13,400 nucleotides of DNA. It comes from a virus (Duplodnaviria > Heunggongvirae > Uroviricota > Caudoviricetes). The stretch is taken from the IMG/VR virus record IMGVR_UViG_2565956633_000006, one strand, 5' to 3'. Each line of letters opens with the position of its first letter. Position 1 is the stretch's first letter. Shown piece by piece: positions 3,309 through 13,400 of this stretch. A program made the position numbers and the translations under genes. The notes beneath the pieces are model-generated. The model did not search any database and was not told the origin of the DNA. It saw only the letters and a list, made by a program, of their open reading frames with translations.

Positions 3309-3884
3309 CTACGGCAGTGCTGGCCATTCAATATCCTGTGCAGTTGACGTATCAACACGGTTCAGCAATACCCGATACTTTTTCCATGCTTCCAGCAACG
3401 AGATTTCTTCCTCCGTTGCAATTTCCAGATCTGCAGCATCCTGAAGCGGCGCAATATGCTCACTGGCTACCTGCATCAGGCTGTTTTTTGTTTCTTCCGC
3501 CTCCCGGATCCGGAACAGTTTTTCTGCTTCCGTATCCTTCACCCAGGCTGTGCCGTTCCACTTCTGATATTCCCCTCCCGGCGATAACCAGGTAACATTT
3601 TCCGGTAACGGACCGAGTTCAGAAATAAATAACGCGTCGCCAGAAGCCACGTCATAAACCGTTTTACCCCGATGATCTTCAACGAGATGCCACGATGCCT
3701 CATCACTGTTGAAAACAGCCACGAAGCCTGCCGGAATATCTGGCGGTGCAATATCGATACTGTTTGCTGGCAGACCTGTATGAGGCGGAATATATGCGTC
3801 ACCTTCACCAATAAATTCATTAGTTCCGGCCAGCAGATTATAAATTTTTATGGTCCGTGGTTGTTCACTCATTCTGAATGCCAT
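3309..3884 (-). CDS. tfaQ: Tail fibre assembly protein (lambda Tfa-like), 191 aa
   Basis: Tfa-family product; start ATG overlaps the stf stop as TAATG at 3882-3886, indicating translational coupling. Confidence 0.9.
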
Positions 3885-4801
3885 TATGCAAGCCTCACAA
3901 TATAGTTAAATGCGATGTTTTTGACGGTGTTTTCCGCGTTACCAGCAGCGTTAACGGTGATGGTATGTCCATGTGAACCAATCGCAACGGAGTGCGTATG
4001 AGCACCAATACCGACAGTATGTGCGTGTGCACCTGCGCTTGCAGCAGTACCCGATACAGAGTGCGTATGAGCGCCTGCAGAAGAAGTGTTAACACTGTAT
4101 TTAGAATAATCAGGTGATCCACTTCCCGGAGCACCACTGGAACCACCTGAAACAAATGTCATCGAATGGGTATGTGCACCGGCTGAAGCAGCCGTACCGC
4201 TAACACTATGGGTATGCGCACCAGTGTTATTCGTGGATTTAGTGCCGTAATCAAACGACGATGTGGTTTTCGTCCCCAAATCCGTACTGGATACGCTGGC
4301 GCTGTGGGTGTGTGATTTAATGCCGTCCTGTTCCTGAGACAATACGGCTCGATCACTGGCGGGCTTGCCCTTAATCGTCCAGCCACGCATATCAGGGATC
4401 ACGCCTGACGGATAAGCGGCTGCAAGTTTCGGGTAAGCAGATTTGTCAAAAGTCTGCCCCTGCATCAGGGCATAACCAGACGGAACGGTATCTGATGGCC
4501 ACGGGATTGGTGCACCGACTGGATAAAACTCTGCAGGAGGATGAGCCGAGGTGTAAAGCTGCGCCCACGGCGACCAGTTTGCGTCGGTCGTATCCCGTCG
4601 TGAACGAATAAATGCCGGAGCATGAGCACCGCTTGTACCACTCCAGCCGATGAGTAACTCACCTTCGCCAACGGCTGTCATCCCTTTCAGGTGAATGATA
4701 TTTCCATACGCTGTTGGATATCCGTTGTTATACACCTCGTATAACTCAAGACCTGTTGCCCCCTGCGTATTGTCTGTCAGCGCGGTTACCCGCGTATCGT
4801 T
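3884..4801 (-). pseudogene. stfQ: Side tail fibre protein, C-terminal fragment (lambda Stf-like)
   Basis: Open frame from the stop at 4802-4804 down to the stop at 3884-3886, with no ATG near the 5' end (first start-like codon is GTG at 4733-4735, without an SD). Product carries repeated GAHTHS...[10 protein letters not shown] His-rich motifs and ends ...[11 protein letters not shown] as in lambda Stf. Confidence 0.85.
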
Positions 4802-4851
4802 TCATCGGCGCGGGCAATGGCAGCATCGAACAGGTTATCGGAATCAGCCAC
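4786..4851 (-). pseudogene. Remnant of lambda FII-like head-tail joining gene (first 21 codons only)
   Basis: GGGAGG followed by GTG GCT GAT TCC GAT AAC CTG TTC GAT GCT GCC ATT GCC CGC GCC GAT GAA ACG ATA CGC GGG TAA, i.e. [21 protein letters not shown], matching the lambda FII N-terminus ([21 protein letters not shown]) as I recall it. Start is GTG here, and the frame stops where the stf-derived sequence begins. Confidence 0.6.
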
Positions 4852-4862
4852 AGCGCCTCCCG

Positions 4863-5258
4863 TTATTGCATTCTGGCCAGGCCATGTTCTGTCATTTCGG
4901 CTGCCACACCGGCAGAGACACGAAACGCCGTTCCCGGCAGCACAAATGCCACAGGCTCATCCCGCGTGGCGTGAAGTGCATCAGTATGCAGCGTCACCAG
5001 TGCCACGACCGTGACCAGAGCAGCCGTATCAATCACGGTATCCGGCTGCGCTGATACCACCTCATTTTCATGTCCGGTCAGCGCATTTTCCGGGCTGACA
5101 GATGTGTCCTGACCGGCAGCGTCATCCGTGTCATCAAGCTCCTCTTCCAGCTCTGCCACACGGAGCACCAGTTCTTCTTTCGTCCCCGTCAGGCTGACAT
5201 CACGGTTCAGTTGCTCACCCAGCACCTGAAGACGGGCAATCAGTTCATCTTTCGTCAT
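4863..5258 (-). CDS. Lambda FI-like DNA packaging protein, 131 aa
   Basis: Product from the internal ATG at 5256-5258 (MTKDELIARLQVLGEQLNRDVSLTGTKEEL...) matches lambda gpFI; strong SD (GGAGGAG) upstream. The longer ORF-track start at 5297 lacks an SD. Confidence 0.85.
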   Translation of the reverse strand: MTKDELIARLQVLGEQLNRDVSLTGTKEELVLRVAELEEELDDTDDAAGQDTSVSPENALTGHENEVVSAQPDTVIDTAALVTVVALVTLHTDALHATRDEPVAFVLPGTAFRVSAGVAAEMTEHGLARMQ

Positions 5259-5279
5259 GGACTCCTCCACAGAGAGAAA

Positions 5280-5297
5280 ATGGCCCCGAAGGGCCAT
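5280..5297 (-). terminator. GC-rich hairpin between the E remnant and FI (ATGGCCC-TTCG-GGGCCAT on the minus strand, then TTTCTCTCT)
   Basis: Perfect 7-bp stem with a 4-nt loop, followed by a U-rich tract on the coding (minus) strand; could act as attenuator or mRNA stabiliser. Confidence 0.35.
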
Positions 5298-5299
5298 GA

Positions 5300-5866
5300 T
5301 TACGCCAGTTGTACGGACACGAACGCATCAGGATCAGCCAGCAGCATCAGCGGTGCTGACTGAATCATGGTGAACTCACGCGCCGGATCGCCGGTGGTCA
5401 CCCAGTTTTTCGGGTAGCGGGCAGAGGCGTTAATACCTTCGCGCTGTGCGTCCGCATCCTGAATGCAGCCATAGGTGCGCAGACCGCGTGCCTGAGTGTT
5501 CCCCAGCACCATCGTGTTGTCCGGCAGGAAGTTCTTTTTGACGTCGTTTTCCACGTACTGTCCGGAATACACGACGATCGCCGTATCGCCATACATCCCC
5601 TTATAGGACACCGCTTCGCCCAGGTCTTTTACCGCTGTCTCCAGCTCGGAATTAGAGCCGCGACGGGTATCCAGCTTCTCCTTGACGGCTTTGAAGGAAC
5701 GGAACAGCGCCCAGCCTTTCGGATCAAACACGATGATATTCACCACGCCGCTGGCGTTCAGCGCGTAGGCTTCGATATCGTCGGTCGGGTCATACGTGGA
5801 CTTGTCACGCTTGCTCCACTCCGTGCCGCCGGACTGCGTGATGTTGTTCGCCGCACTGCGGCCCAT
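5300..5866 (-). pseudogene. Major capsid protein (lambda gpE-like), C-terminal remnant of about 188 codons
   Basis: Product ends ...NTMVLGNTQARGLRTYGCIQDADAQREGINASARYPKNWVTTGDPAREFTMIQSAPLMLLADPDAFVSVQLA, matching the C-terminus of lambda E; the 5' half is absent and replaced by the Nu1-like gene. Confidence 0.85.
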
Positions 5867-8253: not shown

Positions 8254-8460
8254 CTTCATTTTCACTTTTTTAAATCCAACGACAGACGGCTGGCATTTAA
8301 GTATTGTGAAATATTATCAAATGTAATCATCATTGATTTACAAAAGATACATTTTGCCCCGAAAGGATTCATGTCAGAAACATCAAAAGATGATGTTCTA
8401 TACTGGGAACCATGACAACACGGGCATCTAAAGTGAATATGGTTTGTAATATTGTCTACC

Positions 8461-8673
8461 TCAAAGCGCCACTACATGAACAGCGGCAGGACCTTTAGGT
8501 CCGTTCTCAATACCAAATTCAACTTCCTGATTCTCAGTTAATGTTTTGAAATCGTTGCTCTGAATTGCTGAGAAATGGACAAACACATCTTTGCTGCCAT
8601 CTTTCGGCGTGATGAAACCAAAACCTTTTTCAGGGTTAAACCATTTCACTAAACCAGTCATTTTGTTAGACAT
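8461..8673 (-). CDS. cspI: Cold-shock protein CspI (CspA family), 70 aa
   Basis: [38 protein letters not shown]... with RNP1 (KGFGFI) and RNP2 (VFVHF) motifs; long leader region upstream. Confidence 0.95.
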
Positions 8674-9037
8674 AATTATTACCTTTTGAAGAAATTAGCC
8701 CTTGGGCAGAATGGTCCGAAAAAAAAATATCAGAGAGAAAAACCAACAAGGAAATCTCAAGAGGTACAAATAATAAAATTATAACAATGACTGCTTCAGA
8801 TAAATTTGTAACAAACCAGAACACCATTAACGCATGATTAACCACCCATAGCAAGGATTACTTTTGTAAAGAAAAACACAGCAATGAAAGAATAGCTTTA
8901 TTTATTAATAATAACGTGTCATTCTGATTAAGACCTTTTATCTTACCCTTAAGATTTCAGGAATTTTGGCTCATGGAAGAGTCCTTTTTATTTAAATTTT
9001 ACATTCCGCGATGTAAATGTTCCGATTTAATATTACC

Positions 9038-10061
<1,024 letters not shown>

Positions 10062-10065
<4 letters not shown>

Positions 10066-10373
10066 ATATATTTATGATGAGGACGCTCGTGCTTATTGGC
10101 AGGATTTTCAATCTTAAAGGAGTACTGATGCTGCAGATAAGACTCAACTTTTTCTGACAATTTTTCTGCTACTTCCAGGAAGACTTGCCGGACGCTCCTT
10201 CTGGCTGCTGCCTCATAAAACTCCAGCGCAGCTCCTTCAACACGGTCCATGGCGACATCCAGGTCAAAAATTTCACCGTCAAAGCGTTCTTTGTCCTGTA
10301 AGGCTACAGTTACCGTAACTTTATTCTCAAAATTACGGACTCCTTTCACAACCAGTTCATAGTCTTGAGTCAT
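10062..10373 (-). CDS. ydfR: Uncharacterised protein inserted between holin and endolysin (DUF1327 family), 103 aa
   Basis: Intact ORF, 4 nt after the holin stop and overlapping the endolysin start (ATGA); acidic, predicted soluble. Confidence 0.8.
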
Positions 10374-10377
10374 TGGA

Positions 10378-10593
10378 TTACTCTCCTCTCGCAGCCTTAC
10401 GCCTGTCTTCTTTAATCTTGAAATAAAGATTTGTCAGATACGTCAGCAGGCCAAAAACCAGGCTACCCAGCACACCGATTGCAGCCCACTGTGACGGAGT
10501 TACTTTATCGAGTAACTGCAATGCCCAGAAACCAGCATTACCCGCCGATGTGCCATAGGCAACACCTGTTGTTAACTTATCCATTGATTTCAT
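10378..10593 (-). CDS. essQ: Class II holin / pinholin (phage 21 S-like), 71 aa with dual-start motif
   Basis: [71 protein letters not shown] resembles S21; Met1-Lys-Ser-Met4 dual start; GAGG SD upstream of the ATG at 10591-10593. The longer track ORF (to 10668) is upstream read-through. Confidence 0.9.
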
Positions 10594-10812
10594 ATCCTCA
10601 CCCCGATGTACACGGATGGTGCAATATGTTTGAAAAGATCGGAGTCTACGGGGTAGTTTTGACAGCACACGTTGTTCTCAACGGCGCTAAAAAAACATAC
10701 ACATTAAAAATGTGGGTAATTATTTTGAAAGAAAGTCATATATAAAATAATAATACGAGAAATGTTTTCATATTTAGTGTACTGTATACGGCCATTTATA
10801 CAGGAAAAGCCT

Positions 10813-10983
10813 ATGTCAGAACGTAAAAACTCAAAATCACGCCGTAATTATCTCGTTAAATGTTCCTGCCCAAACTGCACCCAAGAGTCAGAACACAGTT
10901 TTTCAAGAGTACAAAAAGGTGCCCTTTTGATCTGCCCTCATTGCAACAAAGTATTCCAGACAAATCTTAAAGCTGTAGCCTGA
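10813..10983 (+). CDS. ynfU: Small zinc-ribbon protein, 56 aa (MSERKNSKSRRNYLVKCSCPNCTQESEHSFSRVQKGALLICPHCNKVFQTNLKAVA); possibly ynfU
   Basis: ATG at 10813 with AGGA 7 nt upstream; two Cys pairs (C-x-C-P-x-C and C-P-x2-C) form a putative zinc ribbon; basic N-terminus. Symbol assigned from memory of a Qin small zinc-binding protein, not verified. Confidence 0.5.
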   Translation: MSERKNSKSRRNYLVKCSCPNCTQESEHSFSRVQKGALLICPHCNKVFQTNLKAVA

Positions 10984-11040
10984 TTGATTTTATTAGTAAC
11001 AAGTATTTTTTATATTTTAATAATATATTTAAAGCAGATA

Positions 11041-11065
11041 ATAAAAAACCCGCCTGAGCGGGTTT
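11041..11065 (-). terminator. Rho-independent terminator (AACCCGC-TCAG-GCGGGTT followed by TTTTTTAT on the minus strand); weakly bidirectional
   Basis: 7-bp GC-rich stem with tetraloop and a U-tract on the minus-strand transcript; downstream of cspB and convergent with the zinc-ribbon ORF. Confidence 0.6.
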
Positions 11066-11346
11066 GAGATTGTGGTGCTTTTTGTGGGAGTCATCCACTT
11101 ACGCACTTTGTTTTGCCATGCCAGCAGTTAGCTTCTGCTGTAAAACTATTCATGCAGCAAACCTGCACTTCACCACAATGGTTAGCATACTTTTCCTGAT
11201 TAAGATTTTGCCAAATATGCTAGCCATTGTTTCATGTATTGGACCTCCTTACTTTTTATTAAAGAGATCCAATATTCACTACTCTGTCCGTATCTCTACT
11301 CAGGCATCAGCCTTCTTCGTTATCGTATACAGACGAGCGATGAATT

Positions 11347-11562
11347 TTAATCAGTAATGATGACATTTGCTGCTGCAGGACCTTTAGCACCACTCTCTAT
11401 AGAGAAGGTAACCTTTTGACCTTCAAATAAGGTTCGATAATTATCATTCTGAATCGCAGAAAAATGCACAAACACATCTTTACTACCATCAACAGGAGAA
11501 ATAAAGCCGAAACCTTTATCAGCGTTAAACCATTTTACTAAACCAGTCATTTTATTTGACAT
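11347..11562 (-). CDS. cspB: Cold-shock protein CspB (CspA family), 71 aa
   Basis: [38 protein letters not shown]...; AAGGA SD 7 nt upstream of the ATG at 11560-11562. Confidence 0.95.
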
Positions 11563-11862
11563 TCTACATTCCTTAACTTGAGCCTTTCGGCATAAATGGT
11601 TTGCATAACAGAAACGACTTCGTACTTAATTGGAGAGACTCAAAGAAGGAATAAGTGAATAACACCTGAAATGAGAACTGCTTTAGTAAACTACTTCGTA
11701 TATCGTCTGTTCTTCAAACCGACGCAATCATTAACGCATAGTTGAACATATGAAGCAATGTTTATTTTAGACATCCAGCCATCTTCAACCCCATCAAAAA
11801 ACTATAGCTTTCTTCAGGAACGTGTGTATAGTGCGCCAAGTTATCAGTATTAAGGAATTTTT
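11563..11862. promoter_or_regulatory. Divergent cspB/cspF control region (promoters and long 5' leaders)
   Basis: 300-bp AT-rich spacer between divergently oriented csp genes; contains a repeated ACTTCGTA motif (11615-11626 and 11691-11705) in the expected cspB leader. CspA-family genes are known to carry long regulatory 5' UTRs. Confidence 0.5.
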
Positions 11863-12075
11863 TTGTCCCGTAAAATGACAGGAATTGTCAAAACCTTTGA
11901 CGGCAAAAGCGGCAAGGGTCTTATCACCCCATCCGATGGTCGTATCGATGTCCAGCTTCATGTCTCAGCGCTCAATCTCCGCGATGCAGAAGAAATTACC
12001 ACCGGATTACGCGTGGAATTTTGCCGGATAAATGGTCTGCGTGGCCCTTCAGCTGCCAATGTTTACCTTTCATGA
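11863..12075 (+). CDS. cspF: CspA-family paralog CspF, 70 aa, with degenerate nucleic-acid-binding motifs; probable TTG start
   Basis: [38 protein letters not shown]...; start codon at 11863 is TTG with AAGGA 6 nt upstream; RNP1/RNP2 aromatic residues are replaced (KGKGLI, VQLHV). Confidence 0.9.
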
Positions 12076-12361
12076 GCTATATTAAAGCTTTAATTTCAGG
12101 CCCCATCGGATCACACATGGAGAGTTTTTATGAATAACCCCGTCTGTCTTGATGACTGGTTGATTGGCTTTAAAAGCTTATGCTGTACTTTGGCCGTAAT
12201 AGCTCTGCTAATAATATAATAAGCAGACTCATTGTGTTTAGGGACATTGTACTGGAAGAAAACATTTTAAACATCAGGCAAATAACCAAGTCACCAGCTA
12301 AATAATAAGTTAACAGACATGAGTCCCGGGATGAGATTCAACATTACCATTGCCCCATTTA

Positions 12362-12400
12362 AAGCACAAAACCCGCTCATCAGCGGGTTTTCTACTTTTT
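12362..12400. terminator. Bidirectional rho-independent terminator (AAACCCGCT-CATC-AGCGGGTTT with T-rich flanks on both strands); candidate tR'
   Basis: 9-bp stem; the plus strand continues TCTACTTTTT and the minus-strand transcript continues TTTTGTGCTTT. Confidence 0.6.
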
Positions 12401-12436
12401 CTTAACGTCGGGTATACAAAGCCCATCGTTGAAAAA

Positions 12437-12465
12437 ATTTTATCCATATTTTTTGAAAAATGCAA
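12437..12465 (-). promoter_or_regulatory. Candidate sigma70 late promoter (pR'-like): -35 TTGCAT, 17-bp spacer, -10 TAAAAT, on the minus strand
   Basis: Hexamers read from the minus strand just downstream of the quuQ stop; a terminator hairpin lies about 40-60 nt downstream, as in lambdoid pR'/tR' units. Confidence 0.35.
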
Positions 12466-12496
12466 ACATCATGTCGCCATCTTCAGCAAAAATCAT

Positions 12497-13249
12497 TTAT
12501 CTCGTCACCTTCCTCAATTGCGCTTCCGCGTATGCTTCTTCCTGCCAGCACTTTGTTACCAGTTTACCAATGACGTCCGCATACCCCTTATACCACTGAT
12601 AATCGGTCAGGTCTGGTACCAGCTTCTGGACATGACGTCGTGCCAGCGTGGTCGGTAAACGACTAAACCGGTTTCCATTACAACGCCCACAAATCTTATA
12701 TACCGGTACGCCATGAAACCGGGTTCTTTTTTCATCCAGAACAATCCCTTTACCCTTACACCCTCTGCACGCTGTGCTGGCTTCGCCCTTACCATGGCAA
12801 TGCTGACATAGTTCCTTCACCCATTCTTCCTTGATTACAGATTCCCCGCGTCTGTAGTGTTTCACCACTTCGCGCAATACATTATAAAATCCCGTACCTG
12901 AACAATGCTCACAGCGAGCCTTACTTGCCGCAGACCTGGAGTAATCAGCAAAGGCAAAACTCACGAGGTAAGGAATAATCTGTAACCGGATTTCTTCACT
13001 CAATTTGTTCAATGTCGGGTTATCCAGTGCCATCGCGTAATTTAGCAGGCCTTCAATCGCAAACTGAGGGTCCTGAACACCAACTTTTGCCAGAAATAAG
13101 GCCAACCCAAGTGGTGCTTTCGACTGCACCATCCCCTGCGCTGCCATTACATCCGTAATTGTTAAACAACCGGTGCCTGTCGCTGGAGCGTCATCGCTCA
13201 ATTTTGGAGATTTTGGGGAGTAATATTTTGGTAAGGCTTCAAGGTTCAT
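12497..13249 (-). CDS. quuQ: Late-gene antiterminator Q-like protein, 250 aa
   Basis: Cys-rich zinc-binding region (CEHCSGTG...CQHCHGKG...CRGCKGKG...CGRCNG) typical of phage Q antiterminators; ATG at 13247-13249 has GGAG 7 nt upstream. The track start at 13279 is TTG with no SD. Confidence 0.9.
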   Translation of the reverse strand: MNLEALPKYYSPKSPKLSDDAPATGTGCLTITDVMAAQGMVQSKAPLGLALFLAKVGVQDPQFAIEGLLNYAMALDNPTLNKLSEEIRLQIIPYLVSFAFADYSRSAASKARCEHCSGTGFYNVLREVVKHYRRGESVIKEEWVKELCQHCHGKGEASTACRGCKGKGIVLDEKRTRFHGVPVYKICGRCNGNRFSRLPTTLARRHVQKLVPDLTDYQWYKGYADVIGKLVTKCWQEEAYAEAQLRKVTR

Positions 13250-13262
13250 GCTCGTTCTCCAC

Positions 13263-13400
13263 TTACGCCAGTACGCCAATTGCCAGCGCGCGATCGATAA
13301 AACGAAATATCAGCTCCAGTTGGGAGCCATACTTATCTTCAAATGCCACTGTATCCGTATGCAGCTCGTTGTGATGCTTTCTGCACAAAGGCAACACAAA
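13263..13400 (-). CDS. ydfU: 3' end of a ydfU-like prophage gene (partial; 5' end beyond window)
   Basis: Open minus-strand frame to the window edge ending ...FVLPLCRKHHNELHTDTVAFEDKYGSQLELIFRFIDRALAIGVLA with stop at 13263-13265, 13 nt upstream of the quuQ start. The C-x2-HH-x3-H pattern is HNH-like. Confidence 0.6.
   Translation of the reverse strand, partial: FVLPLCRKHHNELHTDTVAFEDKYGSQLELIFRFIDRALAIGVLA

Follow-up and report, generated by a model that had tools for sequence, protein, structure and literature searches.

A lambda-type late regulatory cassette is very probably encoded downstream of quuQ in the Qin prophage of Escherichia coli

The DNA analysed here, a 13,400-nucleotide (nt) stretch filed as IMG/VR virus record IMGVR_UViG_2565956633_000006 (the window), corresponds to the left portion of Qin, a cryptic prophage of Escherichia coli. 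Immediately downstream of the antiterminator gene quuQ (ydfT), positions 12361-12465 of its minus strand very probably form a late regulatory cassette of the type known from phage lambda, with a promoter (pR'), a σ70-dependent pause, and an intrinsic terminator (tR'). Published K-12 data show that σ70 RNA polymerase initiates at A12430, retains σ70, and pauses 13-17 nt downstream, where σ region 2 presumably binds again to the -10-like repeat AACGAT (+1 to +6). Without Q, according to the same data, transcription stops at the tR' hairpin and leaves a 3' end at 12364, which yields an RNA of 67 nt. By homology to lambda, QuuQ, when made, would bind a site in the promoter spacer and be loaded onto the paused complex together with NusA. 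The modified polymerase would then pass tR', run antisense over ynfS and cspF and in the sense direction through cspB, continue past a second terminator at 11046-11065 and antisense over ynfU, and finally enter essQ-ydfR-rrrQ-rzpQ and the region beyond.

Results

Promoter and pause element

Between positions 5866 and 13400, the window is 99.7% identical to E. coli K-12 MG1655. Across 12300-12520 the identity is complete, so that data published for K-12 are valid for the unit studied here. Coordinates in NC_000913.3 equal the window position plus 1629992. For data numbered according to NC_000913.2 we applied a shift of +1976 at this place, which results from the IS1, 1-bp, and IS5 differences between the versions. 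This shift was checked independently: it places the start listed at 1639739(-) at window position 11723, exactly where the Rfam cspA-thermoregulator match on cspB has its 5' end.

The initial annotation of this region had described σ70-like hexamers (TTGCAT, 17 bp, TAAAAT) just downstream of quuQ, followed by a strong hairpin terminator. Both elements are present, the hexamers at 12465-12437 (-) and the hairpin at 12391-12368 (Table 1). The quuQ stop codon lies 31 bp upstream of the -35 hexamer. Not mentioned there were AACGAT at +1 to +6 and the bidirectionality of both hairpins of the region. Six bases past the -10 hexamer follows AACGATGGG, which is identical to the σ70 pause element of lambda pR' and located at the same distance (lambda: TAAATT-tgactc-AACGATGGG).

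Hexamer matches by themselves do not reach significance, since 10 promoter-like sites were counted in 10200-13400 compared to 6.9 +/- 3.0 in shuffled sequences. The composite motif derived from the homologues (TTGCAW-N17-TARNAT-N6-AAYGAT), however, occurs once in the window against 0.03 occurrences expected. The unit noted initially is not a chance match.

Table 1. Positions of the features of the late region in the window
Feature	Position	Strand	Basis or remark
quuQ (ydfT), antiterminator of 250 amino acids, lambda-Q family	12497..13249	-	Pfam PF03589 match
ydfU		-	annotated gene near quuQ
-35 hexamer TTGCAT of pR'	12460..12465	-	read from sequence
17-bp spacer TTTTCAAAAAATATGGA, candidate Q-binding element	12443..12459	-	sequence comparison
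-10 hexamer TAAAAT of pR'	12437..12442	-	sequence, promoter scan
Transcription start (+1, A)	12430	-	differential RNA sequencing; first A of AACGAT, 7 nt past -10
σ-dependent pause element AACGAT, -10-like repeat at +1 to +6, then GGG	12425..12430	-	
σ70-associated pause sites, 13/16/17 nt from start	12413..12417	-	RNET-seq with σ70 pull-down
67-nt terminated pR' transcript, counterpart of lambda 6S RNA	12364..12430	-	start site and Term-seq 3' end
Candidate 27-nt hairpin at the 5' end of the short RNA (AACG...CGUU)	12404..12430	-	predicted by folding
tR': hairpin 12391-12368 and U-rich tail UUUUGUGCUUU	12361..12391	-	folding, scan, homologues
ynfS, cargo	12130..12219	+	K-12 annotation, Pfam PF23697; convergent with late transcription
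cspF, cargo	11863..12075	+	K-12 annotation, Pfam cold-shock domain; convergent with late transcription
cspB, cargo with own promoter and cold-shock 5' untranslated region	11347..11723	-	codirectional with late transcription
cspB coding region	11347-11562	-	K-12 annotation
Second, bidirectional intrinsic terminator in the late leader	11046..11065	both	scan, folding
ynfU, zinc-ribbon protein, cargo	10813..10983	+	K-12 annotation, Pfam PF23499; convergent with late transcription
Lysis genes essQ, ydfR, rrrQ, rzpQ	9038..10593	-	K-12 annotation; presumed Q read-through targets
essQ	10378-10593	-	Pfam PF04971 (P21 holin S family)

Published transcript ends and pauses in K-12

Supplementary Data 1 of Sun et al. 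2021 (PMC7876045) includes a start at NC_000913.2 1640446(-) that was identified by differential RNA sequencing (dRNA-seq; Thomason 2015). It converts to NC_000913.3 1642422 and falls exactly on window position 12430; the initial annotation had named a minus-strand start near 12430 as decisive beforehand. For greAB-deleted cells, Supplementary Data 1 and 2 of the same study list σ70-associated pauses at NC_000913.2 1640429, 1640430, and 1640433 (-), detected by RNET-seq with σ70 pull-down. Their pause scores are 6881 (17 nt from the start), 5783 (16 nt), and 1875 (13 nt), respectively. The pause with the score of 6881 occupies row 12 of the genome-wide list, and its start is the sixth distinct one from the top of the greAB-deleted sheet. 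At lambda pR', σ70 engages at a transcript length of 13, the pause is found at +16, and a backtracked, Gre-sensitive species at +17 (PMC5001585). The fact that the strongest species is located at 17 nt in cells lacking Gre factors fits this backtracked +17 species. The Cappable-seq and SMRT-Cappable-seq supplements contained no matching start coordinates for the unit.

The 3' end of the transcript is documented as well. Term-seq revealed an 'orphan' 3' end at NC_000913.3 1642356(-), which has two entries in Supplementary file 1 of Adams et al. 2021 (PMC7815308); we take these to represent two growth conditions. This position corresponds to window 12364 and lies on the U tract, with an RNA 3' terminus of ...GCGGGUUUUGUGC and signals of 103591 and 55368. 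Together with the start at 12430, this 3' end defines an RNA of 67 nt in uninduced, ordinarily growing K-12. The lambdoid pR'/tR' layout proposed initially is thus borne out by the lambda-type Q, the alignment with lambda pR', the mapped start, and the mapped 3' end. A further 'orphan' Term-seq 3' end is located at NC_000913.3 1642188(-), that is window 12196, 168 nt beyond tR' and antisense to ynfS. Read-through of tR' may account for this end, in which case the product would measure about 235 nt.

Terminator and short RNA

The tR' hairpin reads AAAACCCGCU-GAUG-AGCGGGUUUU and is followed by GUGCUUU. With three outer pairs added, the resulting 38-nt fold has a free energy of -20.7 kcal/mol (z = -6.3). 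The terminator scan also lists the hairpin at 12368-12391 on the plus strand, with the tail CTACTTTTTC and facing ynfS and cspF; its fold on this strand reaches -14 kcal/mol (z = -6.3). Ahead of tR', the linker 12392-12403 (-) is A-rich (AAGAAAAAGUAGAAAA) and resembles an ARN-type Hfq motif. Since the complement of this linker supplies a T tract, the hairpin (12368-12400 on the plus strand) can serve as a plus-strand terminator. It is therefore likely to be bidirectional and to have a plus-strand role in addition to that as tR'. In SfV-type cassettes (see below) this upstream A tract is absent.

These plus-strand features would also fit a different explanation, according to which the hairpin serves only to terminate the convergent cspF and ynfS transcripts, and the hexamers arose by chance in AT-rich intergenic DNA. 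The lack of enrichment of promoter-like sites described above agrees with such a view. But a minus-strand start with associated σ70 pauses and a minus-strand 3' end contradict it, as does the chance expectation of only 0.03 for the composite motif. In addition, the hairpin accompanies Q in SfV, Ayreon, the Stx2k phage, and sal3, which carry neither cspF nor ynfS. We therefore give this explanation practically no weight.

Folding of the 67-nt RNA predicted a 5' hairpin, the A-rich linker, and the terminator with its U tail. Across 14 cassettes, 97.6% of the pair cells of the 5' hairpin are paired, and all changes are one-sided and compatible with pairing. No double-sided changes, and hence no covariation, were found in these 14 cassettes, and the shuffle control for this comparison is uninformative, as the pause element dictates the sequence of the 5' arm. 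Taken alone, the hairpin has little stability (-5.8 kcal/mol, z = -1.2). Lambda 6S RNA carries an equivalent AACGA/UCGUU stem. The predicted stem, common to lambda 6S RNA and cassettes of more than 10 genera, might act in Q loading or RNA stability.

The short RNA raises the question of whether the unit is now mainly a small-RNA (sRNA) gene, with a constitutive 67-nt RNA acting in trans and a vestigial antitermination function. This possibility is compatible with a late regulatory cassette. It is favored by the presence of the RNA in uninduced K-12 at the high Term-seq signals given above, by its predicted fold with a linker resembling an Hfq motif, and by at least 99% identity of the unit in 1253 E. 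coli genomes. There are also two precedents. StxS of Shiga toxin (Stx) 1 and Stx2a phages is a by-product of pR'-tR' that regulates rpoS and stx1 (PMC7547250). Like the Qin RNA, it is a short, constitutive product of the late promoter in lysogens that terminates at tR', and in these phages cargo (stx) is also located between tR' and the lysis genes (PMC7547250). Unlike the Qin RNA, StxS derives from a pR'-tR' interval of 258 nt and is processed to 74 nt by RNase E (PMC7547250). Moreover, Hfq binding and the targets rpoS and stx1B have been demonstrated for StxS (PMC7547250), whereas they would be hypothetical for the Qin RNA. The second precedent, IsrK of Gifsy-1 (RF01394), is likewise a short terminated RNA located directly after a Q-like gene, antQ, with partial read-through into cargo genes ahead of the lysis genes (PMC4825925). 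IsrK has a dual role as sRNA and mRNA.

Against such a function, no Rfam family matched the unit at threshold. The isrK model gave 16.6 bits compared to a gathering score of 50; unrelated leader families scored equally well, and none of 18 related loci reached the isrK threshold. The weak matches at permissive thresholds, isrK included, are driven by the terminator, and we rejected them as homology. The linker, as the likeliest part to pair with a target, is the least conserved part across the cassettes, and the high identity of the E. coli copies may reflect recent shared Qin ancestry. Overall, we regard a unit that is now mainly an sRNA gene as rather unlikely. The same applies to the more specific idea that the 67-nt RNA could be a constitutive, unannotated regulatory sRNA of K-12 and about a quarter of E. 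coli strains, bound by Hfq via the A-rich linker and the U tail, which we put forward only as a doubtful possibility.

Conservation of the module

A 221-nt stretch comprising the end of quuQ and the unit matched 35 phage records. In phages SfV, Ayreon, and mEp460, Stx2c and Stx2k phages, and Salmonella phage 118970_sal3, Q is 93-94% identical to QuuQ, and these phages agree with Qin in the promoter, the pause element, and the place of the terminator. Homology in these phages runs to the end of the terminator hairpin and T tract and diverges immediately thereafter. Their terminator stems and linkers differ (SfV/Ayreon/Stx type), without an upstream A tract, unlike the bidirectional Qin hairpin. 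The records of SfV and Ayreon have a terminator annotated right after Q and further terminators ahead of the holin.

A scan of one genome per species revealed further Q relatives with 40-71% identity in Mangrovibacter, Kosakonia, Phytobacter, Atlantibacter, Scandinavium, Buttiauxella, Entomohabitans, and E. albertii. In all but one of them, Q is followed by a -35 hexamer, a spacer of about 17 bp, a -10 hexamer, 6 nt, AAYGATGGG, and then a GC-rich hairpin with a T tract. Besides that of Qin, 18 cassettes from phages and more than 10 enterobacterial genera retain the -35, the -10, AAYGAT, and the hairpin with its T tract. Most aligned QuuQ-type cassettes have TTGCAT or TTGCAA at -35; variants of the -10 hexamer are TAAGAT, TAGGAT, TAGTAT, and TAAATT. 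The pause element is AACGAT in most of the homologous cassettes and AATGAT in three. A hairpin with a T tract is present in every homologue, with different stems (CCCGCU/AGCGGG, CCUCGC/GCGGGG, GACCUCGCC/GGCGGGGUC), and in most cassettes the T tract ends between +54 and +71. Because promoter, pause element, and terminator are conserved in linkage to Q despite these differing stems, the four components behave as one inherited module, as judged from sequence comparison.

Within the species, the 121-nt unit was found in 1422 of 5426 complete E. coli genomes (about 26%); the identity is at least 99% in the 1253 genomes mentioned above, and the 12 of these genome records that were listed have no feature annotated at the unit.

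Deviations from this pattern were also seen. In E. coli SCPM-O-B-8794 (L021:4028-4130), where only Q residues 76-250 were matched, AAAGAT takes the place of AACGAT in the pause element, which fits decay of the unit after loss of Q. HannyBb (L005:1830-1990 and L005:3501-3721) and PhiR63_1 carry two copies of the unit. The copy directly after Q looks dead, with AAAGAG as -10 and AATGATGAG as pause element. The intact copy is located 1.7 kb downstream, before cspF, and is preceded by 57 nt of the 3' end of the Q gene.

QuuQ and its candidate binding site

QuuQ matches the Q-lambda family of Pfam (PF03589) with E = 3.6e-54 and is 33% identical to lambda Q in a full-length alignment. This alignment spans the N-terminal part, which in lambda Q makes up the RNA-exit nozzle (PMC9388147). 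Relative to lambda Q, the zinc-ribbon arm of QuuQ contains an insertion of 48 amino acids (residues ~116-163, window 12760-12905 on the minus strand), which contributes two extra CXXCXGXG motifs and thereby explains a DnaJ-type Pfam match of the protein. QuuQ is 100% identical to Q of PhiR42_1. A Q protein 99% identical to QuuQ is also encoded on JAGZPX010000007.1, which is labeled as a Veillonella parvula metagenome-assembled genome; this label most likely reflects mis-binning of a contig from an E. coli prophage.

The older lambda literature places the Q-binding element of lambda between the -35 and -10 hexamers. In another source it is described solely as a 13-bp site (PMC9388147). The 17-bp spacer of the Qin promoter agrees with that of lambda at 11 of 17 positions. 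It is nearly invariant where Q is at least 93% identical to QuuQ and changes stepwise with Q divergence in the groups with 63-71% and 40% identity. This pattern suggests that the QuuQ-binding site is located in the promoter spacer.

Cargo genes between terminator and holin

The distance of about 1.9 kb between the unit and the lysis genes noted in the initial annotation agrees with the positions of the quuQ stop codon (12497) and the essQ start (10593); from tR' to essQ it is 1.77 kb. The second terminator, originally claimed at 11041-11065, is present at 11046-11065 and folds on the minus strand with -12.8 kcal/mol (z = -5.1). Like the tR' hairpin, it is directed toward convergent genes.

From Q to the holin, the order in Qin is Q, unit, ynfS, cspF, cspB, second terminator, ynfU, and holin, and it is the same in deposited phage genomes. 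PhiR42_1 is 99.94% identical to window 10200-13400 (3.2 kb), including an identical Q, and 2H10 is 94.7% identical; HannyBb, Tritos, and PhiR63_1 also have the unit. Both hairpins are intact in the three genomes checked (PhiR42_1, 2H10, and HannyBb). Phages with ΦR names served as a temperate panel in plaquing assays (PMC13190303); the passages in question do not name PhiR42_1 itself.

The cargo of Qin shows the attributes of morons. The gene cspB has its own start (NC_000913.2 1639739), an Rfam cspA-thermoregulator match at 11331-11723 (158.8 bits), and strong 3' ends at window 11232/11234. Transcripts of ynfU have a plus-strand 3' end at window 11068, and different cargo is found at the same junction elsewhere. 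Unlike in Qin, tR' is followed by unknown open reading frames and a methylase in SfV and Ayreon, and by tRNA genes and stx2AB in the Stx2k phage. The interval from the Q stop to the holin start measures 0.55 kb in 118970_sal3, 0.68 kb in lambda, 1.7 kb in SfV, 1.9 kb in Qin, 2.4 kb in Ayreon, and 4.4 kb in the Stx2k phage, where it holds three tRNA genes in addition to stx2AB. Behind related cassettes (loci L024, L026, L018, and L004) we also observed tRNA genes and, in one or two copies, small RNAs of the STnc100 family. Since the same module carries other cargo at this place in SfV, Ayreon, the Stx2k phage, and other cassettes, cargo behind tR' is a normal moron arrangement and not peculiar to a decayed prophage.

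The initial annotation had left two possibilities, namely that Q-dependent transcription traverses this cargo or is blocked by it. We favor the former, because the identical leader with both terminators has been retained in deposited phage genomes; a block is not favored. Q-modified polymerase is known to disregard terminators across thousands of base pairs (PMC9388147).

Alternatively, the late promoter could be located elsewhere, for example directly upstream of essQ, leaving the unit behind quuQ as a dead relic blocked by terminators and convergent genes. The leader does hold a strong terminator (11046-11065) as well as the strong 3' end of cspB, and an arrangement of this kind is found in the cryptic prophage DLP12 of K-12. 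There, the second-ranked σ70-dependent pauses of the RNET-seq data belong to a start at NC_000913.2 576452 (+), 169 nt upstream of essD. This start is followed by a hairpin, AAACCCGCCGTCGAGCGGGTTTTTCC (L027:930-990, NC_000913.3 ~577229-577290). The essD-upstream unit looks like the DLP12 late cassette, and DLP12 thus resembles Qin in having a cryptic-prophage start with top-ranked σ70-dependent pauses, a hairpin terminator, and a P21-type holin. On the K-12 map, the DLP12 cargo gene nmpC is located between the Q gene quuD and the promoter and not after the terminator, and QuuD is a Q21-type protein.

In Qin, however, the DNA upstream of essQ contains nothing resembling a late-promoter cassette, neither a promoter followed by a hairpin-plus-T-tract unit nor any similarity to the DLP12 unit; the latter is not similar to the Qin unit either. 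Moreover, the 400 nt upstream of essQ do not contain a σ70-pause-associated start in a table that lists pause-linked starts only. Together with the retained leader and the ability of Q-modified polymerase to pass terminators, these results make a late promoter outside the quuQ-linked unit very improbable.

At gathering thresholds, Rfam searches of the whole window returned only IS009, at 3343-3541 (-), and two cspA thermoregulators, the second of which is associated with cspI (8434-8820, minus strand). About 1 kb of the window (4788-5866, nohA region) is absent from K-12.

Discussion

Taken together, our analysis indicates that the unit behind quuQ is, with high probability, the late regulatory cassette of Qin. 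It shares with the lambda Q-pR'-6S RNA-tR' system a Q protein of family PF03589, the succession of -35, 17 bp, -10, 6 nt, and +1, identical bases from +1 to +9, and pauses at 13, 16, and 17 nt. Also common to both are an intrinsic terminator ahead of the lysis genes and a predicted 5' stem AACG(A)/(U)CGUU in the RNA. The two systems differ in the length of the terminated RNA (67 nt in Qin compared to ~194 nt in lambda) and in the leader to the holin, which in Qin contains four cargo genes. Further differences are found in 6 of the 17 spacer positions and in the zinc-arm insertion of QuuQ.

Several points weigh against this interpretation. The pause data derive from greAB-deleted cells. The lambda -35-like TTGACT, which overlaps the -10 hexamer, has no good counterpart in the Qin unit (TTTTTC). 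The U tract of tR' is interrupted (UUUUGUGCUUU), and together with the further 3' end at 12196 this suggests that tR' is leaky even without Q. The zinc arm of lambda Q touches the far end of the Q-binding site. The insertion in this arm may therefore give QuuQ a binding-site geometry different from that of lambda. The link between QuuQ and the promoter, that is binding, loading, and read-through, is drawn by homology. Finally, Qin is defective in K-12, and expression of QuuQ there is putative.

Our literature searches on quuQ, ydfT, and cspF revealed no paper on the promoter or on ydfT/quuQ transcription. The Qin late cassette hence seems to be an ordinary member of a textbook system and a seemingly undescribed, unannotated copy of it, which leaves the textbook model unchanged. 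What is gained is an identity for an unannotated K-12 unit that had so far appeared as a start, as one of the strongest σ70-dependent pauses, and as an 'orphan' 3' end. The unit is a natural chromosomal example of lambda-type σ-dependent pausing that about 26% of complete E. coli genomes carry. We predict that expression of QuuQ would turn on cspB and the Qin lysis genes together, with antisense transcription across cspF, ynfS, and ynfU. The same Q module drives stx2 in Stx2c and Stx2k phages, and findings on the Qin promoter should therefore extend to the control of toxin expression in these phages.

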